Assembly (NCBI GenBank): GCA_945947035.1
Contig: CAMEXD010000004.1
Span: forward strand, 2,362-66,361
Direction: 5' to 3'
Source of the DNA: an uncultured Mycoplasma sp.
GTDB lineage: Bacteria; Bacillota_I; Bacilli_A; RF39; UBA660
DNA length: 64,000 bases
In this document: positions 5,480-63,336 of the stretch, piece after piece
Layout: each line of letters begins with the position of its first letter
Position numbering within the stretch: the stretch's first letter is position 1
Notes under the pieces: generated by a model
Databases searched by the model: none
What the model saw: the letters and a program-made list of their open reading frames with translations, nothing else
Told to the model about the DNA's origin: nothing
Made by a program: the position numbers and the translations under genes

Positions 5480-6502
5480 ATGGATTCTGAAAAAGATTTA
5501 AGTATGTTTACAACAAGAACAGACTTAGTAGATGATTTATCATTAAATAAAAAAGAAATATATGAGGAAGTATATGAAGAAGGAAATGCTAAAGTAAGTA
5601 GGGTATTTATTAATGACAAACAAGCATCTTTAATTGATAAAAAAAGTGGTTATTATACAACTATTTCATTTAGTGATACAACTGATCATAATAATTATTC
5701 TAATGTTAAAAATGTATTTATTAAGGAACTAAATAATATGTTTTCAAAGGAAAATATTAAAGATAATGATACTTGTATGGTAATAGGTCTTGGAAATAGT
5801 AATTCTACTCCTGATTCTTTAGGCATTAAAACTAGTGAAAATGTTATTGTAACAAAACATATTTATGATTTGTTTGGTACTTTAGAAAGTGGTTATCGTA
5901 TTACTTCAATGTTTAATCCTGGTGTTATGGGAGAAACTGGTATTGAAACAAGTGATGTTATAACTAAAATAATTGATTTAGTTGATCCATCTTTTGTTAT
6001 TGTTATTGATGCTCTTGCTAGTTTATCAATTGATAGGGTATGTAAAACAATTCAAATAACTAATGCTGGAATAAATCCTGGATCTGGTATAGGAAATAAA
6101 AGAAAAGAAATAAGCTATGATTCTATAAAAAGACCAATTATTGCAATTGGCGTACCAATGGTTGTTGATGCCGCAACAATTGTATCTGATACTATTAATT
6201 ATATGGAACAACATTTTAGTTATAATATAAAAAATAAAGATTTAAAAATTAATAAGCTAATACCTAGTTCAAAGCAAAATTATTTGAAAGAAAAAAACTT
6301 ATCTCTATCAAGTGAAGAAAAAAGTTACTTTTTTGGTAAAATTGGTACTTTAGATGATTACGAAAAAAGAACACTTATTTTTGATGTTTTAACCCCAATT
6401 GGTTATAATCTTATGGTAACTCCAAAAGAAGTAGATTTTTTAGTAGATTCTCTTAGCAAACTATTAAGCGAAGGTATAAATAGTTGTCTTCATCATATAT
6501 AA
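5480..6502 (+). CDS. gpr: germination protease (spore endopeptidase GPR)
   Basis: Motifs RTDLVDDL, MVIGLGNSNSTPDSLG, IVIDALAS and ITNAGINPGSGIGNKR match the GPR family. The conserved rpsT-gpr-spoIIP synteny supports the call. Confidence 0.85.
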   Translation: MDSEKDLSMFTTRTDLVDDLSLNKKEIYEEVYEEGNAKVSRVFINDKQASLIDKKSGYYTTISFSDTTDHNNYSNVKNVFIKELNNMFSKENIKDNDTCMVIGLGNSNSTPDSLGIKTSENVIVTKHIYDLFGTLESGYRITSMFNPGVMGETGIETSDVITKIIDLVDPSFVIVIDALASLSIDRVCKTIQITNAGINPGSGIGNKRKEISYDSIKRPIIAIGVPMVVDAATIVSDTINYMEQHFSYNIKNKDLKINKLIPSSKQNYLKEKNLSLSSEEKSYFFGKIGTLDDYEKRTLIFDVLTPIGYNLMVTPKEVDFLVDSLSKLLSEGINSCLHHI

Positions 6503-6556
6503 CGACAAAATATAAAACCAATATATTATATAATTTTTCTATGAATGGAGGATTGT

Positions 6557-7405
6557 ATGAAAAAAATATTGGTTTTTATATTTGTTATTTTATCGTTTTA
6601 TTTATTTTTGAATTATCTAACAAAAGATACTAATTTAATTAAAAAAATATTATTTGATAAAGTAAGTCTTTTAAATAGTGAAAAAAATAATGAAACATTA
6701 AAAGAGATAAATAGAATTGTTATTTCTAAACAAAATGAAAGTTTATTTAATTTGCTTAGTATAGAAAGTAATAAAAAAACTACTTTAGTTAATTTAGAAC
6801 AAGATTCTCCACTTGTTTATATTTATAATACTCATGATAAAGAAGATTATGTTAATCCTGATTATTCCATATATAATATTAATTGCAATGTTAAAACGGC
6901 ATCTTATATTTTACAAGATAAATTAAAAGAATATAACATTAATTCTATTGTTGAAGAAAGAAGTCCTACTAATGAGGTAAGCAAAAACAAATTAGATTAT
7001 AAATACACTTATAGTTATTCAAGAACTTATTTAGAAGAAGCTATAAAAAATTATCCAAGTGTTAAAATATTTATTGATTTACATCGTGATGGTGTAAAAA
7101 AAGAAGTATCAACTGCGGTTATAAATGGAACAAGCTATGCTAAACTTATGTTTTTTTTAGGATTAGGTCATGAAAATAGCAAGGAAAACCAAAAACTTGT
7201 AAATGACTTGGAAAATATTATAAAAAAAGATTATAAAGAAATTCTAAGAAATACTTTTATAAGGGAAAATGATAGTTATAATCAAGATTTATCTCCTAAT
7301 TCATTTTTAATTGAAGTTGGTGGAAACTATAATACTATTGAAGAAGTATATAATTCTCTTGATGTTTTAGCATATGCTATAAAAACGTATTTGGAGGAAG
7401 CATGA
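6557..7405 (+). CDS. spoIIP: stage II sporulation protein P (SpoIIP)
   Basis: RBS GGAGGA then ATG 6557. N-terminal TM. The VYIYNTHDKEDY block resembles the SpoIIP IYHTH motif. It lies immediately downstream of gpr as in Bacillus. Confidence 0.75.
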   Translation: MKKILVFIFVILSFYLFLNYLTKDTNLIKKILFDKVSLLNSEKNNETLKEINRIVISKQNESLFNLLSIESNKKTTLVNLEQDSPLVYIYNTHDKEDYVNPDYSIYNINCNVKTASYILQDKLKEYNINSIVEERSPTNEVSKNKLDYKYTYSYSRTYLEEAIKNYPSVKIFIDLHRDGVKKEVSTAVINGTSYAKLMFFLGLGHENSKENQKLVNDLENIIKKDYKEILRNTFIRENDSYNQDLSPNSFLIEVGGNYNTIEEVYNSLDVLAYAIKTYLEEA

Positions 7406-8427: not shown

Positions 8428-8462
8428 GTGGTAGAAAGTGGATTAAAATGGTGGAAAGTGGT
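8428..8462 (+). promoter_or_regulatory. direct repeats GTGGT/GTGGA x4 upstream of and overlapping the mraZ RBS (candidate MraZ operator)
   Basis: GTGGT 8428, GTGGA 8438, GTGGA 8451, GTGGT 8458. MraZ proteins are known to bind direct repeats of GTGG-type boxes upstream of their own gene. Confidence 0.3.
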
Positions 8463-8469
8463 GATTAAT

Positions 8470-8907
8470 ATGTTGATGGGTGAATTTAATCATTCAATTG
8501 ATGACAAATTAAGACTCATTATTCCTTCAAAGTTTCGTGATGAACTTGGAGAAAAAGTAATCATTACTCGTGGTTTGGAAAACTGTTTATTTATCTATTC
8601 AGAAAAAGAATGGGAAAAGGTTGTTTCTAAACTAAAATCATTGCCATTCACTAAAAAAGACGCTAGAAGCTTTACAAGAATGTTTTTATCTGGCGCCACA
8701 ACAGAAGAATTTGACAAACAAGGAAGAATTAAAATAACTAAGCAATTAAAAGATTATGCATCTTTAATTAAAGATTGTGTTGTAATTGGAGTAAATGATA
8801 GATTAGAAGTATGGTCTAAAGAAAATTGGGATAATTACTTTAATGAAAGAGTAGATAATCTATCAGATGTTGCAGAAAAGTTATTTGAAAATGATTTAGA
8901 TTTCTAG
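8470..8907 (+). CDS. mraZ: transcriptional regulator MraZ
   Basis: Starting at ATG 8470 the protein reads MLMGEFNHSIDDKLRLIIPSKFRDELGEKVIITRGLENCLF..., matching MraZ N-termini (MFMGEY.H.ID.KGR). Two MraZ half-domains are present. The ORF-track start at 8428 is an upstream extension. Confidence 0.9.
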   Translation: MLMGEFNHSIDDKLRLIIPSKFRDELGEKVIITRGLENCLFIYSEKEWEKVVSKLKSLPFTKKDARSFTRMFLSGATTEEFDKQGRIKITKQLKDYASLIKDCVVIGVNDRLEVWSKENWDNYFNERVDNLSDVAEKLFENDLDF

Positions 8908-8915
8908 GTGATTAT

Positions 8916-9839
8916 ATGCATATTAGTGTTTTAAAAGAAGAGGCTATTACTGGTTTGAATATTAAAGAAGATGGCATTTATGTAGATATGACTTTAGGTT
9001 ATGCCGGTCATGCTAGTGAAATTTTGAAAAGGAATAAAAAGGGGTTTCTATTCGCTTTTGATAAAGATATAAATGCTTGTAATTATAGTACTGATGTACT
9101 TAAAAAAATTGGTTCTAACTTCAAAATATTCAATACCGGTAATATAAATATGAAAGAAGTATTAAAACAGGAAGGTATTGAAAAAGTAGATGGTTTTCTA
9201 TTTGACTTAGGATTATCAAGTGTTGAAATTGATAATGGAAGTAGGGGCTTTAGTTATATGGTTGATGCTTTACTTGATATGAGAATGGATACAAATAGCA
9301 CTTTTTCTGCCAAAGACCTTGTAAATACTTATAGTGAAAAAGATTTATATCTTATATTTAGAGACTATGGTGAAGAAAAATATGCTAAAAAAATAGCTTC
9401 TAAAATAGTGGAACAAAGAAGTATAAAAGAAATTGAAACAACTTTAGAATTAGTAGACATTATAGATTCTTGTATTCCTTATAAAGATAAAAGACATGGT
9501 CATCCTGCTAAAAGGGTATTTCAAGCTATAAGAATTGAAGTAAATAATGAACTTGGTGAATTTAAAAAAGCTTTAACTGATGCTTTAGAGCTTTTAAATG
9601 TTGATGGATATATCTCTTGTATAACATTTCATTCTTTGGAAGATAGAATTTGTAAAAATATATTTAAAAGTGTAAGTGAAGTAGATCCAGTAATAAAAGG
9701 ACTTCCTAATGTTGATCCATCTTTATTACCTGATTATGAAATTGTAACTAAAAAGCCAATTTTACCAAGTGATATGGAAATAAATAAAAATCCAAGAAGT
9801 AAAAGTGCAAAATTAAGAATTATTAAAAGAGTAAAATAA
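8916..9839 (+). CDS. rsmH: 16S rRNA (cytosine1402-N4)-methyltransferase RsmH (MraW)
   Basis: HISVLKEEAI...DMTLGYAGHA N-terminal SAM-MTase motif. Position after mraZ. Confidence 0.9.
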   Translation: MHISVLKEEAITGLNIKEDGIYVDMTLGYAGHASEILKRNKKGFLFAFDKDINACNYSTDVLKKIGSNFKIFNTGNINMKEVLKQEGIEKVDGFLFDLGLSSVEIDNGSRGFSYMVDALLDMRMDTNSTFSAKDLVNTYSEKDLYLIFRDYGEEKYAKKIASKIVEQRSIKEIETTLELVDIIDSCIPYKDKRHGHPAKRVFQAIRIEVNNELGEFKKALTDALELLNVDGYISCITFHSLEDRICKNIFKSVSEVDPVIKGLPNVDPSLLPDYEIVTKKPILPSDMEINKNPRSKSAKLRIIKRVK

Positions 9840-9851
9840 GGAGACATTTTT

Positions 9852-10136
9852 ATGAAAAAAATAAAAAGAAAATTAACTAAATTTGAATTAATTGTTTATA
9901 CATTTACAATACTTTTATCTATGTTATTCCCACTTTTTTCAGTTTATTCTAAATCAATTTTATCAAAAGTAAACTATGAGGTTGAAGAAATAAAAGAAGA
10001 AACAGAAAAAAGAACAAAAACTAATGAGGATTTAAAGATGCAAGTAAATGAATTAGCGTCTTTAGAAAACTTAGAAAGTGTTGCTAAAGAAATGGGATTA
10101 GTGTATACTTATAATAACGTTAAAGTTGTAGAATAA
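9852..10136 (+). CDS. ftsL: cell division protein FtsL-like (single TM plus coiled coil)
   Basis: 94 aa with an N-terminal TM helix followed by a coiled coil. Canonical position between rsmH and the PBP gene. Confidence 0.55.
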   Translation: MKKIKRKLTKFELIVYTFTILLSMLFPLFSVYSKSILSKVNYEVEEIKEETEKRTKTNEDLKMQVNELASLENLESVAKEMGLVYTYNNVKVVE

Positions 10137-10156
10137 TTTTAAGTAAGGTGATAATA

Positions 10157-12280
10157 ATGGAAAAGTGCAAAAACAATATTAAGTTTAGTAATTTATTTAT
10201 TGTTTTGGCTTTTTTTTGTTTTGCAATTATTGTATATCGTGTTGTTTATCTTGCAACTGCTAAAGAAATAGATGGTATTGATATAAAAGCTTTTGCAGAT
10301 GATAGAAAAATTTATGAAAGTGTAATACCTGCAACCCGTGGTAATATATTAGATACTAATGGTGAAGTTTTAGCAACTACTGTTTCAACATATAAATTAA
10401 TTGCTTACATTGATCCAATAAGAAGTGAAGGAGAAAACAAACTTTATCACGTTGAAGATAAAAAAAATACTGCTAAAGAACTTTCTAAAATTTTAAATAT
10501 GGATGAAAAAGAAATATATAATATCTTAAATCAAGAAAATTTATATCAAGTTGAATTTGGTTCTAAAGGAAAAAATTTAACGCAGTCCCAAAAAGAAAAA
10601 ATAGATAGTTTAAATTTACCAGGCCTTGATTTTATTGAAAGCAAAGAAAGATATTATCCTAATGGAGATTTTGCATCATATACTTTAGGTTATGCGAGAA
10701 ATGATGAAGATGGAGTAATAACTGGAGAACTAGGTTTAGAATCAGTTTTAAACGACCAATTGAAAGGAAAAGATGGTTATACATCATATCAAGTTGATGT
10801 AAATAATTATAAGATTGCAGGAACAAAAGAGATAAAAGAAGATGCAGTAGATGGCTTGAATGTTTATTTAACAATTGATAGTAATATTCAGTATATAGTA
10901 GAACAAGCCTTAAATGATGTGAGTAATAAATATAAATTTGATTGGATTGTAGCAGTTGTTTGTGATGCAAAAACAGGAAAAATTTTAGCAACATCTCAAA
11001 AACCTTCTTTTAATCCGAATCCTAAAGAACTTGATATCGAAAATTACTTAGATTTATCTGTAGCTAATCCTTTTGAACCAGGTTCTATCATGAAAATATA
11101 TACTTATATGGCAGCAATGGAAGCAGGAACTTATGATGGAAATGCTAAATTCAAATCAGGTGGATATAAGGTGGATGATGATGTAACAATTTATGACTGG
11201 CAAAAACAAGGTTGGGGACTTATTACTTATGATCAAGGTTTTATGGCATCATCTAACGTTGGTGTTATTAATATAGTAAATGAATTTATTGATAGAGATA
11301 CTTTATATAAATATTTTAAAAAATTAGGTTTTGGTGAAAAGACAAATATAACTCTAGCTAATGAACAAGCAGGAAAATTATCTTTCTATTACGATTCAGA
11401 AGTTTATAATGCAGCTTTTGGACAAGGTATAACAACAACTCCAATGCAACATATAAAAGCATTAACATCTATTGCAAATGATGGTGTTATGTTAAATCCT
11501 TATATAATTGACAAAGTTGTAACAAAATCTGGTGAAGTAATATATGAAGGAAAAAAAGAAGAACTTGGTGTTGTCGCATCAAAAGAAACAACAGATTACA
11601 TAAAAAATTTAATGTATGATACGGTTCATTCATCATGGAGTGGCGCAACAGGAACTAGTTATAAACTAAAAGGCTATGATTTAATAGGAAAAACAGGTAC
11701 TGCCCAACTAGTTAATCCAACAACTGGAAAATATTATACAAGTTATTATCAAAGTATCAGATCTTTTGTTGGTATGTGGCCTAAAGAAGAACCTGAAGTT
11801 ATAATATATATGTCTGTAAAAAAATCAGAATATAATTATCCACTTGTAACTGCAGTAAAATCAATTGTAAAAAATGTAAGTACTTATTTAAATATCTTTG
11901 ATACACAAAGTAATGAAGTTATAGAAAATAAAAAGATAGATAATTATTTAAATAAAGAAACAACAGAAGTTTTAAATACATTAAAAGATGAAAAAATAGA
12001 TGCAGTTGTAATTGGTGATGGTGATAAAATAATAAATCAATATCCTAAAAAAGATTATTTACTAAGTAGTAATGAAAAAGTTATTCTAGTAACTAATGGT
12101 ACCTATAAAATGCCTGATTTAAAAGGATATAGTAAAAAAGAAGTAAGAGCAATATGTGATATGTTAGATTTAAATTGTACTTTATCTGGATTTGGTTATG
12201 TTAAAAGTCAAAGTATAAAAAAAGATACTATAATAAAACCTGGTACTGAAATAAAATTTGTATTTAAAGAATTATATTAA
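10157..12280 (+). CDS. penicillin-binding protein, class B transpeptidase (FtsI/PBP2B/SpoVD type) with two C-terminal PASTA domains
   Basis: N-terminal TM and dimerisation domain. Transpeptidase motifs are SSN (GFMASSNVG) and KTG (IGKTGTAQ). Two PASTA-like repeats at the C-terminus. Confidence 0.85.
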   Translation: MEKCKNNIKFSNLFIVLAFFCFAIIVYRVVYLATAKEIDGIDIKAFADDRKIYESVIPATRGNILDTNGEVLATTVSTYKLIAYIDPIRSEGENKLYHVEDKKNTAKELSKILNMDEKEIYNILNQENLYQVEFGSKGKNLTQSQKEKIDSLNLPGLDFIESKERYYPNGDFASYTLGYARNDEDGVITGELGLESVLNDQLKGKDGYTSYQVDVNNYKIAGTKEIKEDAVDGLNVYLTIDSNIQYIVEQALNDVSNKYKFDWIVAVVCDAKTGKILATSQKPSFNPNPKELDIENYLDLSVANPFEPGSIMKIYTYMAAMEAGTYDGNAKFKSGGYKVDDDVTIYDWQKQGWGLITYDQGFMASSNVGVINIVNEFIDRDTLYKYFKKLGFGEKTNITLANEQAGKLSFYYDSEVYNAAFGQGITTTPMQHIKALTSIANDGVMLNPYIIDKVVTKSGEVIYEGKKEELGVVASKETTDYIKNLMYDTVHSSWSGATGTSYKLKGYDLIGKTGTAQLVNPTTGKYYTSYYQSIRSFVGMWPKEEPEVIIYMSVKKSEYNYPLVTAVKSIVKNVSTYLNIFDTQSNEVIENKKIDNYLNKETTEVLNTLKDEKIDAVVIGDGDKIINQYPKKDYLLSSNEKVILVTNGTYKMPDLKGYSKKEVRAICDMLDLNCTLSGFGYVKSQSIKKDTIIKPGTEIKFVFKELY

Positions 12281-12314
12281 TTGTGTTATAATAAACTATT
12301 GAAAGAGGTGTTAT

Positions 12315-13385
12315 ATGAAAAAAGTAATACTAACAGGAGAAAGACCAACAGGACCACTTCATATAGGTCATTATGTAGGTTCTTTAAGAAAAAGATTAGA
12401 ACTTCAGGAAACAAATGAGTATGAAATATATATACTTATCGCAGATTTACAAGCTTTAACTGATAATTTTTCTAATCCTAAAAAGATAAGAGATAATATT
12501 TTAGAAGTTGTTTTAGATAATTTAGCAGTGGGAATTGATCCTAATAAATGTACTTTTGTTGTTCAATCAAGTATACCTGCTTTACATTATTTACCTATGT
12601 ATTATGCAAATTTGGTAACACAAGCAAGATTAGAAAGAAATCCTACTGTAAAAAATGAAATTAGTCAAAAAAACTTTAATAAATCTATTCCAGCTGGTTT
12701 TGTAAATTATCCAATAAGTCAAGCGGCTGATATAACTGCTTTTAAAGCAACTCATGTTCCAGTAGGAATAGATCAACTACCTATGATTGAACAAACAAGA
12801 GAGATTGTAGAATCATTTAATAGAACTTATAATTGTAATGTGCTTGTTTTACCAACTGCAGTTTTACCAGATAATGAAACTTCATATAGATTACCTGGTA
12901 CTGATGGCAATAGTAAAATGGGAAAATCTTTAGGTAATTGTATTTATCTAAAAGATAGCGAAGAAGAAGTAAGAAAAAAAATTATGGGAATGTACACTGA
13001 TCCTAATCATATCAAAGTATCTGATCCAGGAAATGTAGAAAATAATCCTGTTTTCACTTATTTAGATTGCTTTGCTAAAGATTGCTATTTTGAAAAATAT
13101 TTGCCTCAGTACAAAAATCTTGATGAGTTAAAAGAACATTATAAACGTGGTGGTTTAGGAGATATGGTTGTAAAAAAATTCTTGAATGATTGTATGCAAG
13201 AAATATTAAAACCAATTAGAGAAAGAAGAAAATACTACGAAGAAAGACTTGATGAAGTTTTTAAAATGTTAGAGCAAGGCAAAGAAAAAGCAACTGAAGT
13301 TACTAATGTTACTTTAAATGAAGTAAGAGATGCAATAGGAATTAACTATTTTACTGATGATAGTTTTAAAGAAAATTATCTATGA
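12315..13385 (+). CDS. trpS: tryptophan--tRNA ligase
   Basis: Class I aaRS motifs: HIGH-type region (GERPTGPLHIGHYVGS) and KMSKS-type region (KMGKS). Size and N-terminus fit TrpRS rather than TyrRS. Confidence 0.6.
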   Translation: MKKVILTGERPTGPLHIGHYVGSLRKRLELQETNEYEIYILIADLQALTDNFSNPKKIRDNILEVVLDNLAVGIDPNKCTFVVQSSIPALHYLPMYYANLVTQARLERNPTVKNEISQKNFNKSIPAGFVNYPISQAADITAFKATHVPVGIDQLPMIEQTREIVESFNRTYNCNVLVLPTAVLPDNETSYRLPGTDGNSKMGKSLGNCIYLKDSEEEVRKKIMGMYTDPNHIKVSDPGNVENNPVFTYLDCFAKDCYFEKYLPQYKNLDELKEHYKRGGLGDMVVKKFLNDCMQEILKPIRERRKYYEERLDEVFKMLEQGKEKATEVTNVTLNEVRDAIGINYFTDDSFKENYL

Positions 13386-13759
13386 AAGCAATAACATTAA
13401 AAGAACCTTGGGCATCTTTGGTTGTTAATGGTTATAAAACTTATGAATTTAGATCTTGGAAAACATCCTATAGAGGGAAAATTTTAATTCATGCAGCAAA
13501 AGGTGTTGATAAAAATAATATTGATAGATTTAAATCTTATAATTTAAATTATGGGAATTCCTGTATTATTGGCGAAGCTTATATTGTAGATTGTGTTAAA
13601 GTTTCTAAAGAACTTCGCAAGAAACTTTTAAAAATAGATAGTAATGTTTATCAAGAAAGTGGTTTTAATGAAACTTATGCTTTTGTTTTAGAAAATTGTA
13701 AAAAATATGATAAATATATTCCTTGTAAAGGACATTTAAATATTTGGAATTATGATTAA
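13382..13759 (+). CDS. ASCH (PUA-like) domain protein
   Basis: MKAITLKEPWASLVVNGYKTYEFRSW... matches the ASCH N-terminal beta-barrel signature. Confidence 0.55.
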   Translation: MKAITLKEPWASLVVNGYKTYEFRSWKTSYRGKILIHAAKGVDKNNIDRFKSYNLNYGNSCIIGEAYIVDCVKVSKELRKKLLKIDSNVYQESGFNETYAFVLENCKKYDKYIPCKGHLNIWNYD

Positions 13760-13790
13760 TAAAAAAGTACATAATAATATTGGTGATATT

Positions 13791-14297
13791 ATGTACTTTT
13801 TAAATAGCTTTTTTATATATTCGATTTTAGGTTATATTCTTGAATCAGTCGGTGGAATTATAACTAAAACCAATTACAAAAGTGGTATTTTACATGGACC
13901 ATGGACACCAATATATGGAATAGGTGTAGTGGTAATTTTACTTTTATCTAACTATTTTTTTAAAAATCTACATATGCCAAGATGGAAAGAAACAATTATT
14001 GTAATTATTGTTTTAGCAATATTTTTAACTTGTCTTGAAGCAATCGGTGGTGTTTTGATTGAAAAAACATCTGGTGTTGTATTTTGGGATTATTCTGATA
14101 AAAAATTTCATATTGGTAAATATATTTGTTTAGAAATGATGCTTGTTTGGGCGATTGGATCTGTTTTATTTATATATGTTATAAATCCAATATTAGATCC
14201 TATAATAAAAAAAGTTCCTTTATTTTTAACAATAGCAATGAGTCTTATATTTGTAATTGATATTATTTATACAATATGTACTGGAATTAAAAAATGA
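13791..14297 (+). CDS. polytopic membrane protein (putative ABC-transporter-type-IV/DUF1113-like). Paralog of 27315..28160
   Basis: RBS GGTGA then ATG 13791. Similar to the N-terminal half of the 27315 ORF (YFLxxSxLGxxxExxxxxI, GPWxPIYGxG). Confidence 0.45.
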   Translation: MYFLNSFFIYSILGYILESVGGIITKTNYKSGILHGPWTPIYGIGVVVILLLSNYFFKNLHMPRWKETIIVIIVLAIFLTCLEAIGGVLIEKTSGVVFWDYSDKKFHIGKYICLEMMLVWAIGSVLFIYVINPILDPIIKKVPLFLTIAMSLIFVIDIIYTICTGIKK

Positions 14298-14321
14298 TTT
14301 TTTAAAACAAAAAATTAAAAT

Positions 14322-14348
14322 GCTTCTTATAAAAAGAAGTTTTTTTTA
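14322..14348 (+). terminator. rho-independent terminator
   Basis: GCTTCTT-ATAAA-AAGAAGT hairpin followed by an eight-T run. Confidence 0.6.
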
Positions 14349-14433
14349 TTATTTTCTAAATTAACTATTGACTAACATAGCAAACTATTATATAGTTAAA
14401 TTAACCGTTAATTAACAAAATAAGGAGGCAAAT

Positions 14434-15012
14434 ATGAAAAATGAAATTGTAATATTTAAAAATCAAACTGTAAAATTAGAAGTAAATATGAAAGATGAGA
14501 CTGTTTGGCTAAACAGGGAACAAATGAGTAAATTATTTGATAGGGACATAAAAACAATTGGTAAACATATTAATAATGCTTTAAAAGAAGAACTTTATAG
14601 TTCAACTGTCGCAAAATTTGCGACAGTTCAAAATGAAGGAAACAAAACAGTAACGCGTAATATTGAATATTATAATTTGGATATGATTATAAGTGTTGGT
14701 TATCGTGTTAAATCAAAAAATGGTATAATTTTTAGAAAATGGGCAAATCAAATTTTAAAAGATTATCTAATAAAAGGTTATGCGATAAATAATAAAAGGT
14801 TAGAGTATCTTGAAAAAACAGTAAAATTAATTGATATAGCAAATAGAATAGATGAAAATTTAAAAGCAGAAGATGCCAAAGAAATATTAAAAGTAATAGG
14901 AAAATTTCAAAAATCTTTTGATTTGTTAGATAATTATGATAATAAGATATTTCCTAAACAAAGAGGAACAATTGGTTCTAAAACAATTACTTATGAAGAA
15001 TGTTTAATATAA
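14434..15012 (+). CDS. RhuM-family virulence-associated protein
   Basis: The blocks NIEYYNLDMIISVGYRVKSKNGIIFRKWANQILKDYLIKGY match the RhuM family core. Strong RBS AAGGAGG. Overlaps the next gene by 13 nt (operon). Confidence 0.7.
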   Translation: MKNEIVIFKNQTVKLEVNMKDETVWLNREQMSKLFDRDIKTIGKHINNALKEELYSSTVAKFATVQNEGNKTVTRNIEYYNLDMIISVGYRVKSKNGIIFRKWANQILKDYLIKGYAINNKRLEYLEKTVKLIDIANRIDENLKAEDAKEILKVIGKFQKSFDLLDNYDNKIFPKQRGTIGSKTITYEECLI

Positions 15013-15377
15013 TTAAAGAATTAAAATATAATGAAAAAAGCAAGTTATTTGCTTTAGAAAGAAATAAAGGACTAGAATCAATTATCGCTAATATTTATCA
15101 AACATTTGATGGAGAAGATGTTTATAAAACAATAGAAGAAAAAGCTGCCAACTTTTTGTATTTAATTGTTAAGAATCATGTTTTTATTGATGGCAATAAA
15201 AGAATAGCAGCAACACTTTTTATTTATTTTTTACAATATAATAATATTTTATATAGAAATAATCAATTTGTGATAGACAATAATACCTTAGCAGCACTAA
15301 CACTTCTTGTTGCAGAATCAGATTATAAAGAAAAAGATATATTAATTCCTTTAATAATGAACTTTTTATATGAATAA
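15000..15377 (+). CDS. Fic/Doc-family protein (Doc-like toxin motif)
   Basis: HVFIDGNKRIAA matches the Fic/Doc motif HxFx(D/N)GNKR. 125 aa, typical of Doc-type toxins. Confidence 0.7.
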   Translation: MFNIIKELKYNEKSKLFALERNKGLESIIANIYQTFDGEDVYKTIEEKAANFLYLIVKNHVFIDGNKRIAATLFIYFLQYNNILYRNNQFVIDNNTLAALTLLVAESDYKEKDILIPLIMNFLYE

Positions 15378-15384
15378 ATAATTA

Positions 15385-16443
15385 TTAATTTTTATATTTT
15401 GCTACGTTTAAAACAATACCAATACTTATCATACTTATAAGTAAGCTACTGCCACCATAAGATAGAAAAGGAAGAGTAACACCTGTAACAGGAATAAGAC
15501 CTACAACAACACAAAGATTAAGTATTGCTTGAAATATAAGTTGAAAAATAATACCAAAAACTAAATATTTTCCAAATAAATTAGTGCAATTTAAGGCGAT
15601 TTTTAAACCACTATAACAGATTAAGAAGAAATTTATAATTACAAAAAGTGCTCCAACAATACCAAATTCTTCACAGATGATTGAAAAAATAAAATCAGTC
15701 TGGGGTTCAGGTAAATAAAAATGTTTTTGTCTAGAATTTAAAAAACCAAATCCAAATAAACTTCCTGGACCTATCGCATATAAACTTTGAATAATTTGAA
15801 AACCTGTTCCTAAAGGATCTTTCCAAGGATCTATAAACGATGTAATACGATCCATTCTATAAGGTGCTACAATAATTAATCCAGTAATACCAATTATTCC
15901 AAGTCCAAATAGATAGTAAAAATACTTCATATCAAGTCCTGATATAAAAAATAAAGAAACAATTGATATAACAAGAATCATTCCTGTACCAAAATCAGGT
16001 TGTAACATAATAACACCAAAGAATAAAAGACATATTAAAAATACAGGTAATATTTTTTTAATATCAACTTTATTTGTTTTTGATAGATACTTTGAAATAA
16101 AAATAATTAGTCCAAGTTTTGCAAATTCACTGGGTTGAATACTAAATCCAAGAAGACTAAACCAACTTCTAGAACCATTTCTTACAACTCCAATACCTGG
16201 GATTAAAACAAGAATTAAAAGTAAAAGGCAAACTCCTAAAATGATATTTGCCTTTTTATAATATAATTTATAATCAATTTTACTAACAAATATTAAAAGG
16301 AATAGTCCTATAAGAAAGAAGAAAAATTGTTGTTTTACATATTTAAAGCTATCATCAAATTTATATTCAGCCCAAATATAGCTTGATGAGTATATCATTA
16401 TAATACCAAAGATTATAAGTGATATAACTGATACAAATAACAT
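15385..16443 (-). CDS. ftsW: peptidoglycan glycosyltransferase FtsW/SpoVE (SEDS family)
   Basis: About 10 TM helices. Conserved SEDS blocks (PEPQTDFIFSIICEEFG, GSRSWF). Confidence 0.85.
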   Translation of the reverse strand: MLFVSVISLIIFGIIMIYSSSYIWAEYKFDDSFKYVKQQFFFFLIGLFLLIFVSKIDYKLYYKKANIILGVCLLLLILVLIPGIGVVRNGSRSWFSLLGFSIQPSEFAKLGLIIFISKYLSKTNKVDIKKILPVFLICLLFFGVIMLQPDFGTGMILVISIVSLFFISGLDMKYFYYLFGLGIIGITGLIIVAPYRMDRITSFIDPWKDPLGTGFQIIQSLYAIGPGSLFGFGFLNSRQKHFYLPEPQTDFIFSIICEEFGIVGALFVIINFFLICYSGLKIALNCTNLFGKYLVFGIIFQLIFQAILNLCVVVGLIPVTGVTLPFLSYGGSSLLISMISIGIVLNVAKYKN

Positions 16444-16484
16444 TATATTATATTTTTTCTTGATAGGGCATCACCTAATATATT

Positions 16485-17474
16485 TTATATCCAAACTGCA
16501 AAGAATATGCCAAGAAGCGAGAAGATAATTCCAAATAAATAAAATGCTTTAACAATATCAGGTTCTGCAAATCCTTTTTTTTCAAAGTGATGATGAATAG
16601 GTGAATTTAAGAAAACTCTTTTTTTTGTTAATTTATAATATCCAATTTGAATAATGGAACTAAGAGTTTCAAATACAAAAGGGAAACATACGATTAAAAG
16701 CGTTACTTCACGTCTTGTTAAAATAGCAATAGTAGCGAATACAGCACCTAAAGCAAGAGAACCAGTATCACCCATGAATACTTTAGCAGGGTAGGCATTA
16801 AACATCAAAAATCCAAAAAGCGTTCCTACTAAAATGAAACAAAATATTCCCATATCTTCTTGTCCAATAAATAAAGAAATAAGAGCAAATGCAACAAAAG
16901 AAATTGCTGATAATCCTCCTGCTAAACCATCTAAACCATCGGTTAAATTAACAGCATTACTAAATCCAACAAGTAAAAGAAGAATAAATATTCCATAAAA
17001 GAATCCCAGTTCAATATTAATATTTAAAGTAGAAACAACAAATGTTGTATCACCATCGTATTTCATATAAATATAGAAAAATAAAAGTGCAATTACAATC
17101 TGACCAAAGAACTTTTGAGAAATTGTAAGTCCTTCGTTTTTTCCTCGTTTGATACTTAAAAAATCATCTAAGAAACCTAAGATTGCATATAAAACAAATA
17201 CTAAAAGAACAATTCCTAAGTTATAGGTAAACTCAATTCTATCAGTTAAACAAAGATAAACAATAGTAAGAATGGTAGGAATTATAAAAATTAATCCTCC
17301 CATAGTTGGAGTTCCTTCTTTTTTTCTATGGTTTTCTCCAACATAATCTCCAATTCTTTGACCAAAATTAAGTTTCTTTAAAAATGGAATAAAGAAAAAT
17401 CCAAAAACAACTGATGTTAAAAATCCAACCATTAATGATAAAACTACTTTAGTTAATAATAACATATTAAACAC
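16485..17474 (-). CDS. mraY: phospho-N-acetylmuramoyl-pentapeptide transferase
   Basis: Polytopic. MraY signatures FMGDTGSLALG and NAVNLTDGLDGLA. Confidence 0.9.
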   Translation of the reverse strand: MFNMLLLTKVVLSLMVGFLTSVVFGFFFIPFLKKLNFGQRIGDYVGENHRKKEGTPTMGGLIFIIPTILTIVYLCLTDRIEFTYNLGIVLLVFVLYAILGFLDDFLSIKRGKNEGLTISQKFFGQIVIALLFFYIYMKYDGDTTFVVSTLNINIELGFFYGIFILLLLVGFSNAVNLTDGLDGLAGGLSAISFVAFALISLFIGQEDMGIFCFILVGTLFGFLMFNAYPAKVFMGDTGSLALGAVFATIAILTRREVTLLIVCFPFVFETLSSIIQIGYYKLTKKRVFLNSPIHHHFEKKGFAEPDIVKAFYLFGIIFSLLGIFFAVWI

Positions 17475-17547
17475 CTCGCCTATACATGTTAATTATACTA
17501 TAATTATTATTTTTTTTATAGTTATTTTTGTTAGTTTACATATTAAT

Positions 17548-18420
17548 TTATTCAGTAATTAATCTAATTTTACCTGTTTCATAATATCTTTCACCAGCAC
17601 TTGGAGATTGTTCAACTACTATATCACCATCACCAATAAACTCTATATCAAATCCTGTTAAAAGTTTTTTTGCTTCTTTTCTTGTTTTTCCAATAACATT
17701 TTCTACTTCATAGTATTTTTTGTCATACCATTCATAATCTTTTTCTTTTTGATCATCTTGTTTTTCAATATCTAAAATTGTAATTAAATCAAGTAGTATT
17801 CTTCTTACAAATGGAGTAGTGGTATAACTTGATAAAAGTGCTGTTTTTTTAGGATTATCAATTGCAAGATAAAATACAACTTTTGGATCATTACTTGGAA
17901 GTACAGACATAAAACTCATAATATAATTGTTTTCTAAGTATCTACCATTTTCAACCTTTTGAGCTGTACCTGTTTTTCCACCAACTCTATAACCATCAAT
18001 GTAAGTCATTTTACCACCACCATTAGCAACAACACTTTCTAAAGCCATACGAAGAATTTTACTTGTATTAGAACTAACTGTTTTTCTTACAATTGTTGTT
18101 TTGTTTTCTAAATAAGTAGTATTTGTATTATTATCAGATATACTTTTTAAAATATATGGTTGTAATAAATAACCTCCATTTACAATAGCAGATACGGCAT
18201 CAACTTGTTGAAGTGCTGTAACACTAACACCTTGACCAAAGGCGGTTGTTGCAAGTTCTAGATCTTTTACATCATCTAAATCAAAAATTATTCCTGTTGC
18301 TTCACCATTAAGATCGATTCCTGTTTTTTCACCAAAACCAAATAAATCAATATATGAAAATAATTTTTCTTTTCCAAGTTTAAATCCCATTGAAACAAAA
18401 CCAGGGTTCATTCCAGTCAA
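17548..18420 (-). pseudogene. N-terminally truncated class B PBP remnant (transpeptidase C-terminal half plus one PASTA)
   Basis: Begins within the SxN-region equivalent (LTGMNPGFVSMGFKLG...), keeps KTG (GGKTGTAQ) and one PASTA, and lacks the SxxK active-site block and the N-terminal domain. The upstream reading frame hits TGA within 20 codons and the flanking DNA encodes a + strand gene. Confidence 0.65.
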
Positions 18421-18477
18421 TACAGGTACACGAACATTGAAGTAGAAAATGATACGAACATAGATTCATATTCTAAT

Positions 18478-19440
18478 TTGTGTAGTCATATTGACCAGAA
18501 GCAATCTTGGAGTGGATACAACTACACATATAAATTTGTTGAGAACCCCTTAAACGATGTTAAACAGACTAATATTGTGGAAGTTCACACTACTTATGAA
18601 ATAGTTTGTAATGGAATAGCATACATTGATGATACAGAGTATAATTCACCGAACGATGTTTTGTGTTATGTTAATAATATTAAAAAGGAGAGGTTACGAA
18701 TAAGTAAGAAAATGTATAATATAAATTCAAATTCATATAAAAATATTACTGCCAACAAAAATGTTGAAATAATAAAATTATACGATGATTTAGAAAAATA
18801 TATTTTGTCATTAGATAAGAAAATTATTAGAAATTTTCTTCATAAAGGAATAGTATTCAAATATAAAAAAAGAATCTTAGAAGTATTAATAAAACAACAG
18901 GTTTTAACAATTGTATTTTTAAAAAATACAAAACAATTTGATGATAAAAATTTATTATATATGAGAAAAGGATATGAGAAAGATTCAATATGCTATTGTT
19001 TAGATGTAGGTAATAAGAAAACATTTGAATATGCTTGTAATCTATTTAAAGCATCTTTTGAAGATATGATGGAAGATAAAGAAAAAAATAGGATAGACGA
19101 ATTGTTTAAAGAATTATCAAACAGAATAAAAGGAATTCATTATACAATTAAAGGCATAAAAATGGTAAGGGGAACAGTTTTTAAAGGTAAAAGAAATTTT
19201 TGTATTCTAGAAAAAAGAAAATATGGGATTCAAATTAGATTGTTGTCAGTTAAAGACAATGACAATATTCTTAATGATTTAAAAAGAACACATCAAGAGC
19301 CATTATGCAAGTATTTTAATGTTTTAGAAAAAGATGACATTAACAAAATAATTCCATATTTAAAAGATGCTTTTGAATTAACTAAATATCCAGCATTGGA
19401 TGTAAAAAACAAATTAATAGATTTAAATAGAGAAGAGTAG
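18478..19440 (+). CDS. hypothetical protein with two internally repeated approximately 60-aa units (DUF5655-like pattern)
   Basis: The repeats KKIIRNFLHKGIVFKYKKRILEVLIKQQVLTIVFL and NRIKGIHYTIKGIKMVRGTVFKGKRNFCILEKRKYGIQIRLL resemble each other. No catalytic motif identified. Confidence 0.3.
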   Translation: MCSHIDQKQSWSGYNYTYKFVENPLNDVKQTNIVEVHTTYEIVCNGIAYIDDTEYNSPNDVLCYVNNIKKERLRISKKMYNINSNSYKNITANKNVEIIKLYDDLEKYILSLDKKIIRNFLHKGIVFKYKKRILEVLIKQQVLTIVFLKNTKQFDDKNLLYMRKGYEKDSICYCLDVGNKKTFEYACNLFKASFEDMMEDKEKNRIDELFKELSNRIKGIHYTIKGIKMVRGTVFKGKRNFCILEKRKYGIQIRLLSVKDNDNILNDLKRTHQEPLCKYFNVLEKDDINKIIPYLKDAFELTKYPALDVKNKLIDLNREE

Positions 19441-19462
19441 TTCTCTATTTTTTCATAAAAAA

Positions 19463-19492
19463 AACAATACCTGATACTGCTTGGTATTGCTC
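19463..19492 (+). terminator. hairpin between convergent genes (CAATACC-N11-GGTATTG). A second short CAGCT/AGCTG hairpin lies at 19574-19593
   Basis: 7-bp perfect stem after the 18478..19440 stop. Sits between convergent genes. Confidence 0.35.
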
Positions 19493-19609
19493 CAACATCA
19501 ATCGACAAACTTCTCAATTGATAATTAAATGTTATCAAATATTAGTCATGTTGTCAATATATATTCGCAGCTCTTTACTAGCAGCTGTATATCGGCTTTA
19601 ATATATTAA

Positions 19610-20227
19610 CTAAAGTTCATAACCAAATTGAATAATTCTTTTTTTTAATTCGTCGCAATGACTATCAATTTTTTTGGTTAAGTAATTTAATATATCTTTT
19701 GCACTTTTATTTTTATATTCTTTTCTTAATTTTTCATAATATTCTTTAGCTTCATTATAATTGTCAAATTTTTTTTCTAAATGTTTTTTTGTCCAAATTT
19801 CAGCAATAGAATATTCAACTCTAATATAAACTTCATATTCTATAACAGAAAAATGAATACCACCACAATCAGCAATGATATTTCTTTCTGTATATTTTTG
19901 CTCAAAGAATATATGGGTTTTAAAATCACCATGTTTATATCCTTTATGATCTATTTCTTTATCACATTTATCTTCATCTGGAATTTGTGATAATTTTAAA
20001 TCCCATTCTTTCTTTAGTTTTCGCAATTGATGACTATCTTTACAATCACTAAAAAAATTTTTTATTCGTGATAAAAAAGTTGCTTGAGATTCTCTTTTTT
20101 GATAATCGTTGCTCATTTTTAAAATACAAGCTTGAGCATGTCTTTCTTCAACATAGTCAAGTTCTTGTTCTTTAACTAGAAAAGTGCTAAACATATCATC
20201 ATTACTATCGCTTTTTACTTTATTCAT
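19610..20227 (-). CDS. hypothetical protein
   Basis: 205-aa ORF with charged and His/Cys-containing segments. No motif recognised. Confidence 0.3.
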   Translation of the reverse strand: MNKVKSDSNDDMFSTFLVKEQELDYVEERHAQACILKMSNDYQKRESQATFLSRIKNFFSDCKDSHQLRKLKKEWDLKLSQIPDEDKCDKEIDHKGYKHGDFKTHIFFEQKYTERNIIADCGGIHFSVIEYEVYIRVEYSIAEIWTKKHLEKKFDNYNEAKEYYEKLRKEYKNKSAKDILNYLTKKIDSHCDELKKRIIQFGYEL

Positions 20228-20328
20228 AATACTAATTTAATTCCTTTCTTTAATATAGTAAATTTTCAGCGATATCAATTCGTGTTTATTTTTAATTAAA
20301 AAGGGTAAACTAGAACTGGTGGTGTTAG

Positions 20329-20583
20329 ATGAAAATTTCAAACATCCGTAAAGTATTGGGTGTCAATGTTAAATATTACAGATATTTAATTGGTTATACT
20401 CAAGAGCAATTAGCCGAAAAATGCGAATTGAGTCCAAGATATATTAGTGATATTGAAAATTCACAGGGTAATGTTTCAGTTGATACCCTAGAAATTATCG
20501 CTAAATATTTAAGAGTTGAATCTTATCTTTTAATAAAACCACAAAAGCACCCATCTTTACCGAAAAGAGTAAATATGAAATAG
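20329..20583 (+). CDS. XRE-family helix-turn-helix transcriptional regulator
   Basis: LIGYTQEQLAEKCELSPRYISDIENSQGNVSVDTLEIIAKYL is a classic Cro/C1-type HTH. Confidence 0.7.
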   Translation: MKISNIRKVLGVNVKYYRYLIGYTQEQLAEKCELSPRYISDIENSQGNVSVDTLEIIAKYLRVESYLLIKPQKHPSLPKRVNMK

Positions 20584-20726
20584 CTCTTTTCTTTTTTATT
20601 ATATATCAAAATTAACTATTTTTCATATTACTCTGGAATAAGTATAACACAAATTTGGTAATTCGGCACGAAAGGTCACATATTTTTTAATAATATTTTT
20701 CTATAATTTTATTAAGGAGTGATATT

Positions 20727-20963
20727 TTGGAACAATATATTGATTATAACGAAAACATTAAAACAATTATCTGTAAAAACATCAAGAAATATAGAAATCA
20801 AAAAGGAATAAGTTTAGCAAACTTAGCAGAGAAAATTGATGTATCCGTAGATCATCTTAAAAGAATAGAAGCACCTAATGATAGAAACAATATATCACTA
20901 ATAACACTTTATAAGATTTCTATTGTTCTCGGTATTAGAATTGACAAGTTTTTTGAAGAATAA
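20727..20963 (+). CDS. XRE-family helix-turn-helix transcriptional regulator
   Basis: KGISLANLAEKIDVSVDHLKRIE...LITLYKISIVLGIRIDKFF is an HTH_3-like pattern. Confidence 0.6.
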   Translation: MEQYIDYNENIKTIICKNIKKYRNQKGISLANLAEKIDVSVDHLKRIEAPNDRNNISLITLYKISIVLGIRIDKFFEE

Positions 20964-46455: not shown

Positions 46456-46926
46456 ATGAGTGATAGTCCTAAAAGGAGGAAATATTTTGATAATCCTTAT
46501 GAAATTAGAATTATTAATGAGAAGTATTTTATCTGCTTTAAGGATAATAAAAATAAAATGCAAGAAATAGAAGTTAGTTCAAAAATATATAAGATATTTG
46601 ATGATTCTGAACTACATGATTTATCAGAATTAAATGAATATGATAGACATATAGAACATTCTGAAATTTTTGATATATCACTTTATCATAGAAGTAATGA
46701 AGAAATGTATTCTTTAGAAAAAGAGGTTGAGGATAAGATTCTTAATGAAGAATTAAGAGATTGTATTAGAACACTACCAGATGTTCAAAGAAGAAGGATT
46801 ATTAAATATTATTTTGATGATAAAAATGAATATGAAATAGCTGAAGAAGAAGGAACAACTCATCAAGCAGTAAATAAATCTTTAAAGCAAGCTCGAGAAA
46901 AATTGAGACAAATTTTAAAAAAATAG
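46456..46926 (+). CDS. sigma-70 region-4 (HTH) domain regulator, ICE-associated
   Basis: C-terminus LRDCIRTLPDVQRRRIIKYYFDDKNEYEIAEEEGTTHQAVNKSLKQAREKLR matches sigma-70 region 4. N-terminal part lacks region 2. Confidence 0.55.
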   Translation: MSDSPKRRKYFDNPYEIRIINEKYFICFKDNKNKMQEIEVSSKIYKIFDDSELHDLSELNEYDRHIEHSEIFDISLYHRSNEEMYSLEKEVEDKILNEELRDCIRTLPDVQRRRIIKYYFDDKNEYEIAEEEGTTHQAVNKSLKQAREKLRQILKK

Positions 46927-46960
46927 AAATTTAGGGTTGCTATTTTGCTTATGAGTGAGG

Positions 46961-47010
46961 AAACAAGTGAGAGGGTTAATTATTTAATTTTTCTCACTTG
47001 TTTATTTTCA
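46961..47010 (+). terminator. terminator: 12-bp stem AAACAAGTGAGA/TCTCACTTGTTT with T-rich tail
   Basis: Perfect 12-bp inverted repeat 46961-46972/46992-47003, then TTTATTTTC. Confidence 0.55.
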
Positions 47011-47149
47011 AGTTTGTTCTTTGACAATTTTATATTCATTCATTAAATACATTCCTATTATTAATAGCACTGTAATTGGTTCGCTTGCGATTAAAACCAG
47101 ATTATAAAAATAGATAGCAACTATTTTGCGATGACGAATAATAGGTATA

Positions 47150-47300
47150 ATGATACTTCTGTCCAGCCACAACCTCAAGTAATGGGGGCAGTTCTGTGAG
47201 AACCACAGAGAGGTGAGATGCCTATGGAACTAATTAGCTATTAGTCATTTAATGATTTCCAGCCGAGGGGTTCGGGGAAAAATATCGGTGAAGTAAAAAA
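47150..47300 (+). ncRNA. GC-rich structured 5' leader or small RNA candidate upstream of ORF 47319
   Basis: Local GC around 45% against a roughly 25% background. Hairpin TCTGTG-AGAAC-CACAGA nested in CCTC...GAGG, CTAAT-TAGCT-ATTAG, CCGA-GGGGT-TCGG. Duplicated CCAGCC boxes at 47163 and 47259. Weak TTGCGA/TATAAT promoter-like hexamers upstream. Confidence 0.25.
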
Positions 47301-47318
47301 TATAAATAAAAGGAAAAG

Positions 47319-47534
47319 GTGATTCAAATGAAAAAATATGATGTGAAAATTAAGGTGGTAAAGGAACACGATATAATAGTTAGTGCAACTTGTAGAGAAG
47401 AAGCAATTAGTAAGGTAGATGAATTAGTTGCTGGTTCAGGAATTCAATATTTAGATATTCCTAATTTTACAAAGCATTATATTATTATAGATATTGATAA
47501 GAAACCTATATTCAAAAGAAAGCATCATAGATGA
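47319..47534 (+). CDS. small hypothetical protein
   Basis: RBS AAAGGTGATTCAAATG. 71 aa basic C-terminus. Confidence 0.3.
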   Translation: MIQMKKYDVKIKVVKEHDIIVSATCREEAISKVDELVAGSGIQYLDIPNFTKHYIIIDIDKKPIFKRKHHR

Positions 47535-47573
47535 TTTGTGTTTTTGAAAAAATGATGGTAGCATCAAAGTGAG

Positions 47574-59346: not shown

Positions 59347-59355
59347 GAGTTAATA

Positions 59356-60270: not shown

Positions 60271-60349
60271 ATCTATATATAAAAAATAAGTATAGATGGA
60301 TTAAATACACACTTGTTGTGGATTATTTTGCAAGTGCAAAATGTGAAAT

Positions 60350-60416
60350 AATATCACTAAAATTGCTGTTTTTACTTATAAAAATGCTAGTAGTGATATT
60401 GTTTCCTTTATCCTGC
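60350..60416 (+). other. candidate oriT: 10-bp inverted repeat AATATCACTA-N31-TAGTGATATT followed 9 nt later by ATCCTGC (MOBP/Q-type nic consensus)
   Basis: Upstream dyad ATTTTGCA-AG-TGCAAAAT at 60325-60342. Sits in front of an RHH gene. Nic core YATCCTG|Y at 60408-60416. Confidence 0.4.
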
Positions 60417-60467
60417 TTACAAATAGTGCTTATTTTTAATATATTTCAATCCATAAAAGGAGGGATT

Positions 60468-63312: not shown

Positions 63313-63336
63313 AGAGAGGAGATGGTTTAATGCCAA

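Follow-up and report, generated by a model that had tools for sequence, protein, structure and literature searches.

The 64,000-nucleotide (nt) stretch of DNA analysed here (hereafter the window), from an uncultured Mycoplasma sp. placed in the RF39 lineage, carries a truncated gene for a class B penicillin-binding protein (PBP), which is one part of an interrupted sporulation gene, spoVD. Comparison with related loci shows that a mobile element using a large serine recombinase (LSR) has integrated site-specifically into spoVD and thereby divided it, and that the attachment site of the LSR lies in the DNA coding for the conserved SxN motif (ENSCN|PGF). Taken as a whole, we assign a probability of about 0.8 to the explanation that a large mobile element broke spoVD at an attachment site of its recombinase. 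On the evidence of its sites and gene content, this element is probably an integrative and conjugative element (ICE) of at least 45.6 kb, extending from 18409 to beyond 64000 and reversed through a second attachment site (site 2), in which case the LSR body and the spoVD 5′ half would lie about 10 kb past the window. A sequence-only reading of the same DNA had recognized a SpoVD-like PBP cut within its transpeptidase domain at a DNA rearrangement junction, which stands, and had attributed the cut to a chromosomal inversion, which does not: it is probably the mobile element that is inverted, not the division and cell wall (dcw) gene block.

The 3′ half of spoVD and its counterparts in relatives

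17548-18420, minus strand: 3′ half of spoVD (C′), 290 amino acids (aa), host-derived sequence from about 18408-18411

By alignment with intact relatives, the fragment is the 3′ half of spoVD, a sporulation-specific class B PBP. It corresponds to positions 104-298 of the 299 in the Pfam Transpeptidase profile (E 2.8e-46), and its host-derived coding sequence runs from the SxN Asn to the native stop, taking in KTGT and a single PASTA domain. A functional class B PBP such as SpoVD carries a membrane anchor, a pedestal and the SxxK, SxN and KTG motifs, and here the PBP_dimer pedestal, SxxK, the signal peptide and any transmembrane segment or membrane anchor are missing. This bears out the earlier description of a second PBP that starts at SxN without SxxK or the N-terminal domain, and whose upstream frame closes within 20 codons: the in-frame stop, TGA at 18468-18466, lies 16 codons ahead of the TTG start. 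Homology to intact relatives begins at 18411, at the codon of the SxN Asn (AAC 18408-18406), and the N-terminal half of the protein is found nowhere in the 64 kb. An alternative genetic code or read-through of TGA was considered as the cause of the truncation and rejected, since code 11 gives long open reading frames (ORFs) as usual and what lies upstream of the fragment is a plus-strand gene, not PBP sequence.

The intact form of the gene is seen in L005 (metagenome-assembled genome SUG1322; related loci are cited here by L numbers), which shares 95.5% DNA identity with window positions 16476-18411, diverges completely beyond them, and codes for a PBP of 634 aa without interruption, 98% aa identical to the fragment over residues 348-634. 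This protein scores 694.7 bits on NCBIfam TIGR02214 (stage V sporulation protein D, spoVD_pbp; cutoff 688), and because the intact allele passes the SpoVD equivalog cutoff, the interrupted gene is identified as spoVD. In B. subtilis, spoVD is expressed in the mother cell. The comparison with dcw regions of relatives that had been proposed from the sequence is thus available in L005, where the intact SpoVD gene is followed by mraY and preceded by divergent dnaD-like, nth, surface-protein and ftsK genes; none of these upstream neighbours occurs in the window. The frame of the 3′ half is intact, and its ratio of nonsynonymous to synonymous substitution rates (dN/dS) is 0.05-0.06 against L005 and L087/L088. 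Contig-index searches with the exact 280-aa C′ and with a 205-aa ORF of the adjoining element gave no useful match.

How often spoVD is split was surveyed in 80 loci from uncultured gut Bacilli, one genome per species, with record titles that include "Mycoplasma sp. CAG:611", "Clostridium sp. CAG:417" and "Candidatus Scybalousia". The gene is continuous at the window's break point in 69 of the 80, split exactly there with an LSR abutting the 3′ half in seven, split elsewhere in one and begun at a contig edge in three. In the split genes the 5′ half ends in ...ENSCN and the 3′ half resumes at PGF..., the intact form reading ENSCNPGF; C′ in the window resumes at N-PGF. The recombinases have Resolvase, Recombinase and Zn_ribbon_recom domains, and stand next to the att site in L001, L004, L020, L024, L051, L065, L077 and L089, where the window has only a 48-nt remnant of the LSR tail. 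Both spoVD halves flank the element in L001 (3.7 kb), L051 (4.6 kb), L024 (4.8 kb) and, on one contig, L094 and L004 (about 14 kb). The cargo of this 14-kb element comprises DUF5655, helix-turn-helix (HTH) regulators, PAP2, PadR, a Tet(M)-like gene, a methylase, a coupling protein and the LSR, and L089 holds the coupling-protein/LSR end of a similar element. The insertion is polymorphic within the window's species, as spoVD is intact in L005 and split in the window and in L087/L088.

Protein fragments (P0123, P0137 and P0227, of 418 aa, and P0027, P0047 and P0095) show further break points in spoVD. One, S|TFK, falls in the catalytic SxxK motif (seen in proteins, and in L082 and L092), and a third, VTPI|QQ, is represented by abundant 418-aa 5′ fragments. 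These 418-aa fragments end after ...GQGVSVTPI in HLTV or HLVV followed by a stop. They had been considered as the reverse-orientation partner of the window's 3′ half, wrongly, since they mark the third insertion site; three motif-coding stretches of spoVD thus serve as insertion targets. In L092 (495-7344) together with L093, a single spoVD is interrupted twice by two different elements, an AAA/Fic/LSR element at the SxxK-coding site and an element with DUF5655 and type IIG restriction-modification genes at the SxN-coding site.

Attachment sites and orientation of the element

18400-18431, minus strand: hybrid att junction (attR-type), with host B′ arm, AA at 18408-18407, spacer TGGAATG and half-site GTGTACCTGTATTGAC at 18431-18416
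18432-18479, plus strand: remnant of the LSR 3′ coding tail, 48 nt, collinear with L088 and detached from the recombinase body
18480-18527, plus strand: intact attP-like site, GTGTAGTCATATTGAC CAGAAGC AA TCTTGGA GTGGATACAACTACAC, centre 18503-18504

Aligned over 10 junctions, the att sites consist of 16-nt inverted half-sites (consensus about RTGTWCNTGTATTNAC), 7-nt spacers and a central AA in GCAATC, and their host-side arms are spoVD sequence. The marks of LSR attachment sites, namely inverted half-sites, a central dinucleotide and hybrid attL and attR junctions, are therefore all present. In the window, GTGTACCTGTATTGAC has zero mismatches to the half-site consensus derived from relatives and is the top-scoring half-site, and the spacing of this attR equals that of attR in L001, L004, L020, L088 and L089. 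A position weight matrix (PWM) scan of the 64 kb, with a matrix that included the window's own three sites, gave these half-sites scores of 17.8-26.1, the next best being 13.4, and found no further att-like site in the window, 18.5-64 kb included. The attP-like site, 96 bp from the junction, is the sole strong inverted pair of half-sites in the 64 kb (score 36.7; next best 12.0). In its right arm and flank it shows homology to the P′ arms of attL in L091, L092, L001 and L051, and its TCTTGGA spacer is identical in the window, L001 and L051; by these alignments 18480-18527 is an intact attP, in which the LSR-side arm is joined to the P′ arm. One plus-strand frame (18400-19440) has no stop between the spoVD junction and the DUF5655 ORF, crossing both the LSR-tail remnant and the attP-like site. 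When the element is circular, reading of the LSR may therefore continue across attP into DUF5655, and the recombinase C-terminus would then depend on the integration state.

Beyond the half-site at the junction, the window DNA is not an LSR gene, and the open plus-strand frame that starts from the junction resembles the tail of the L020 LSR. A layout of three half-sites, at 134/131, 102/99 and 35 nt from host sequence, is common to the window, L088, L020 and L089; its place in L020 and L089 is within the 3′ end of the LSR ORF. In L088, which comes from another pig-gut sample and belongs to the window's species, the unit between the crossover centres (about 99 bp) is the exact reverse complement of that in L020: the half-site labelled b in L020 is joined to spoVD and the one labelled c to the P′ arm, so that b and c are swapped. 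This inversion of the L088 unit relative to L020 is as predicted for recombination through site 2.

Site 2 would be a second attP-like site, inverted and about 96-99 bp upstream of the normal attP, within the 3′ end of the LSR gene. In the proposed mechanism, the circular element would recombine with attB via this inner inverted site (a-TT-b) and not via the usual attP (c-AA-P′), so that the element would become reversed relative to most relatives and the last ~33 or so LSR codons would be left beside the spoVD 3′ half. What would remain there is a hybrid att site, the 48-nt scrap of LSR tail and the intact normal attP. A two-step inversion after normal integration would yield an identical structure, and by either route the process is recombinase chemistry, not a random break. 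An interpretation of the window flank as an ordinary LSR-side (P) arm from which the LSR had been deleted was dropped for the site-2 model after L020 and L088 were compared.

Content of the element and its possible excision

18478-19440, plus strand: DUF5655 ORF (Pfam), first gene of the left-end module, its 5′ end overlapping the attP-like site
19610-20227, minus strand: 205-aa ORF, left-end module
20329-20583 and 20727-20963: two HTH_3 regulators (Pfam), left-end module
21597-45959, plus strand: probable cargo, about 25 kb (Pfam), presumably belonging to the element
46456-64000, plus strand: conjugation module (Pfam), running off the right edge
56195-58558, plus strand: VirB4-like ATPase (Pfam)
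61999-62724, plus strand: MobL relaxase (Pfam)

The ICE would thus run from a left-end module (DUF5655, HTH regulators) through cargo to a conjugation module, and at its far end the LSR body, the spoVD 5′ half and then dnaD and nth are predicted. DUF5655 homologues directly follow the spoVD 5′ half in L051, L091, L092/L093 and L094-L103. L091 is 77.7% identical to the window at the nucleotide level over 18503-20962, with the module there following the spoVD 5′ half in normal orientation, and the gene order of the left module is common to the window, L091 and L094. Scanning JGI metagenomes for the DUF5655 protein led nowhere, and no free circular form turned up in IMG/VR scans with the LSR and DUF5655.

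The probable cargo includes three PlsC-type acyltransferases, a glycosyltransferase resembling monogalactosyldiacylglycerol (MGDG) synthase, two acyl-CoA ligases, a two-component system, a patatin, cdsA, a small RelA/SpoT (alarmone) synthetase and an MMPL transporter; in L091 the cargo after the left module differs (P-type ATPase). If it is part of the ICE, this membrane-lipid gene block at 21597-45959 is an unusual cargo.

The conjugation module adds a sigma factor, an adhesin with thioester (TED) and SpaA domains, a sortase, two single-stranded DNA-binding protein (SSB) genes, a type IV secretion system (T4SS) pilin and an M23 peptidase. The reverse-orientation model demands plus-strand genes here, and all of them are. 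The last two ORFs of the window (162-aa and DUF1281-like) are 54-57% identical to genes of the spoVD-integrated elements in L077 and L089, where the homologues lie upstream of the LSR by about 8 kb (L077) and about 9.5 kb (L089). The coupling protein, the integrase/LSR and the second att junction are not in the window; in L004 and L089, coupling protein, integrase and junction fall within the last ~4 kb before the LSR end. Within the module, the surface protein at 48166-51604 is 939 aa long, with its TED domain and six SpaA repeats, and sits beside its own sortase; the related orders RFN20 and ML615J-28 are reported to have no srtA/B sortases (PMC10868615). The module also contains a 138-aa ORF (52822-53238) with a resolvase N-terminal domain only, unrelated to the LSRs of the spoVD elements.

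As to function, the LSR together with a directionality factor would cut the element out, either in the mother cell or when the ICE is induced, and so rejoin the halves into a working spoVD, with the spore retaining the integrated copy. By analogy with skin in sigK and SPbeta in spsM, that such excision restores spoVD may be given somewhat less than an even chance. The intact halves, the low dN/dS, the insertion polymorphism within the species and the presence of sporulation genes are consistent with a gene that is periodically reconstituted. Among these sporulation genes, gpr (germination protease, E 5e-103) and spoIIP (E 4e-53) are intact upstream of mraZ, at 5480-7405 of the window, and are direct evidence that this reduced-genome lineage of uncultured Bacilli keeps sporulation genes. 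The small ORF ahead of the LSR, of 78-82 aa, is a candidate for the directionality factor. Some 25 nt ahead of the ribosome-binding site of this small ORF-LSR operon, CATAnnnT is conserved without change in otherwise diverged sequence (L001:7950-8003, L004, L024, L077 and L089), and in the L001 group and L077 it forms GAATAA-14-CATAnnnT, which is sigmaE-like and has a background of 0.1 per kb per strand. Its resemblance to a sigmaE-type mother-cell promoter is only a lead. Plain disruption of spoVD in a lineage that is losing sporulation is also possible (PMC10868615). More tentatively, spoVD may be an unrecognised and widely used developmental-excision locus in uncultured gut Bacilli, at which several LSR-bearing conjugative or mobilisable families target the SxxK, SxN and VTPI|QQ sites and mother-cell excision rebuilds the gene, one family, with two inverted attP sites about 99 bp apart in its LSR gene, entering either way and rewriting the LSR C-terminus.

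Alternative explanations and known systems

Several points weigh against interruption of spoVD by a reversed and excisable ICE. The reverse orientation is confined to one species (window/L085, L087 and L088). The LSR and the spoVD 5′ half lie outside the window, where the far junction is predicted, and a protein search with the 5′ half of L005 gave matches of at most 71% identity and no close relative for this species, so that in this strain the 5′ half may have been deleted or may be missing from the assembly. Look-ups with proteins of the window's right end reached only a shorter NCBI contig, which stops about 1 kb past the window, and not the 78.8-kb ENA contig. The genes at 21.6-46 kb look partly like housekeeping genes (e.g. 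cdsA), which are unusual for an ICE, and this region could be chromosome moved beside the junction by a further rearrangement. The low dN/dS might mostly predate the insertions, the promoter motif is weak evidence in DNA of 25% GC, and excision, the directionality factor and sporulation-specific control are drawn from analogy with skin and SPbeta.

The same absences could mean that the structure is a dead remnant, in which the LSR and the 5′ half were lost after an old integration and the 3′ half is a decaying pseudogene of a spoVD that is no longer needed. Both the LSR and the 5′ half are missing from the 64 kb, the protein collection holds no match above 71% to the 5′ half of this species, related uncultured Bacilli orders are reportedly losing sporulation, and spoVD is reduced in RF39 (PMC10868615). 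Such decay is nevertheless unlikely, given that the 3′ half is in frame to its native stop with a dN/dS of 0.05-0.06, that the att sites are well kept (a perfect half-site and an intact attP-like site), that an ICE module of a spoVD-targeting family is oriented so as to end in an LSR just past the window, and that gpr and spoIIP are intact.

The inversion proposed in the sequence-only reading, of a spoVD-mraY-spoVE block with one random breakpoint in the PBP gene, concerns the layout of the dcw genes, whose coordinates and calls in that reading all hold (mraZ-rsmH-ftsL-PBP on the plus strand, mraY and ftsW on the minus strand):

8428-8907, plus strand: mraZ
8916-9839, plus strand: rsmH
9852-10136, plus strand: ftsL
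10148-12280, plus strand: PBP1, a full class B PBP of 710 aa, division-type (Pfam PBP_dimer, Transpeptidase and two PASTA)
12315-13385, plus strand: trpS
13382-13759, plus strand: ASCH protein
13752-14297, plus strand: CmpB-like membrane protein
14434-15012, plus strand: RhuM-N ORF, overlapping the Doc/Fic ORF
15000-15377, plus strand: Doc/Fic
15385-16443, minus strand: SEDS glycosyltransferase (FtsW/SpoVE type), third gene of the spoVD-mraY-SEDS unit
16485-17474, minus strand: mraY (NCBIfam mraY 300.8 bits, cutoff 192)

PBP1 reaches only 362 bits on TIGR02214 (cutoff 688). The SEDS gene scores 388 bits on NCBIfam ftsW, above its cutoff of 337.5, and a higher 400.6 bits on spoVE, below the cutoff of 448.8. 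In this window of about 25% GC, the plus strand carries nearly every gene, and GC skew turns negative solely across the minus-strand spoVD-mraY-SEDS block, which, with the collinearity of PBP1 and spoVD in some distant relatives (L083, L061 and L054), speaks for an inversion of that block. An inversion would, however, place the spoVD 5′ half against 15.38 kb, where doc and the SEDS gene instead converge, 7 nt apart; no N-terminal fragment is found in the window, and the half-site PWM scan shows no att-like or repeat structure at 15.38 kb. The break is moreover the LSR crossover nucleotide common to seven other species, and in L005, with spoVD intact, the gene is already divergent from the upstream dnaD and nth. 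Across the clade, spoVD is followed by mraY in 55 or more loci and the spoVD-mraY-SEDS triad occurs in 25, while the placement of spoVD-mraY-ftsW relative to mraZ-rsmH-ftsL-PBP1 varies with spoVD intact, being collinear with the PBP1 cluster in L083, L061 and L054 and convergent in L036. How the cluster is arranged therefore has no connection with the truncation, and a random chromosomal inversion is very improbable. The mraZ-rsmH-ftsL-PBP1 cluster (8428-12280) is outside the rearrangement, and trpS, the ASCH, CmpB-like and RhuM-N genes and doc (12315-15377) sit between the two dcw pieces. RhuM-N and Doc (14434-15377) form a toxin-antitoxin-like pair wedged there; a RhuM-Doc pair 60-71% identical to it is also found upstream of intact spoVD in L022. 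The window contains no tRNA genes that could be the integration target.

An assembly artefact, such as a chimera joined at short att repeats when integrated and circular forms are mixed, would account for an intact attP-like site 96 bp from the junction, as in a circular form. L085, which is probably from the same source as the window, does have a chimeric tail elsewhere: in this contig (JAIFIJ010000578.1) GC content switches from about 25% to about 50% at 20299-20963, after the equivalent of window position 28775, the tail deriving from another organism. L085 (over 20.3 kb) and L086 (NCBI GCA_019973115.1) are 100% identical to the window and hence not independent of it. The join of host B′ arm to the b half-site, however, is impossible from a mixture of normal integrated and circular forms, and 16-nt repeats are far below the assembly k-mers indicated by the contig names. 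L087 and L088, from independent pig-gut metagenomes and 93-96% identical to the window, were assembled with a junction of the same type but 5-7% divergent in sequence, which means that the window junction is not an artefact of this one contig; misassembly at 18.40-18.50 kb, which had been left open as an objection, is accordingly highly unlikely. Least plausible of all is that the 290-aa product is a functional stand-alone, catalytically dead PBP/PASTA protein, as the hundreds of similar short ORFs at 64-98% identity might suggest, since these 270-350-aa homologues are not a genuine short protein family but 3′ halves of split genes beside recombinases or contig-end pieces, the product lacks a signal peptide, transmembrane segment, SxxK and conserved start, and the upstream sequence differs between elements.

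With spoVD split by an LSR-bearing element, an apparent pseudogene and a scrambled dcw cluster become an interpretable split gene, and spoVD, the cortex transpeptidase gene, is added to the few sporulation genes in which elements with a recombinase lie. In this case the elements resemble ICEs, and their hosts belong to an uncultured gut lineage with reduced genomes, about whose sporulation there is debate. The apparent inverted pair of attP sites would be a compact natural case of orientation choice by an LSR, a class of recombinases used as genome-engineering tools. Conjugative transposons of Firmicutes of the Tn5397/TndX type likewise have an LSR at one end, integrate at specific sequences and carry a relaxase, VirB4 and a coupling protein. 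The spoVD elements differ from them in targeting a motif-coding stretch of spoVD, and in a second inverted attP-like site in the LSR 3′ end that appears to permit the opposite orientation. Surveys of gene content are likely to count a spoVD in two halves as "spoVD absent", and inferences about the loss of sporulation could be biased as a result; RF39 is among the groups reported with reduced spoVD presence (PMC10868615).

Elements in sigK, spsM, spoVFB, spoVR, gerE and yabG are excised by their own serine recombinase in the mother cell (PMC4191935, PMC5595907, PMC10747680, PMC6957869). These published target lists do not include spoVD, and no literature report of spoVD as a natural target was found. 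Sporulation gene-intervening elements such as skin, SPbeta, vfbin, vrin, gin and yin lie in the ORF of a mother-cell sporulation gene of a spore-former, and here the interrupted gene passes the SpoVD cutoff in L005 and is accompanied by gpr and spoIIP. In skin, which interrupts sigK in B. subtilis and C. difficile, and in SPbeta, which interrupts spsM, an LSR element likewise lies in a mother-cell sporulation gene (PMC4191935, PMC5025042, PMC5499854); there, as in the relatives with split spoVD, the halves are intact, their joining at the core restores the ORF, and the recombinase gene adjoins one att site and reads towards it. The present elements differ in their target and in being conjugative or mobilisable, not prophage-like, and their excision during sporulation is proposed by analogy. 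The gin element in gerE of B. cereus ATCC 10987 is likewise a non-prophage intervening element with serine recombinases in a sporulation gene (PMC5595907), with a different target and recombinase; its rearrangement during sporulation has been demonstrated experimentally, whereas the spoVD elements are known from sequence alone. The one paper found on an ICE in spoVD describes ICEBs1, as a laboratory secondary-site insertion by a tyrosine integrase at a degenerate site in a strain without attB, with undetectable excision (PMC3715440). It shares with the present case an ICE inside spoVD, and differs in that spoVD is here the primary, conserved and natural target of an LSR family.

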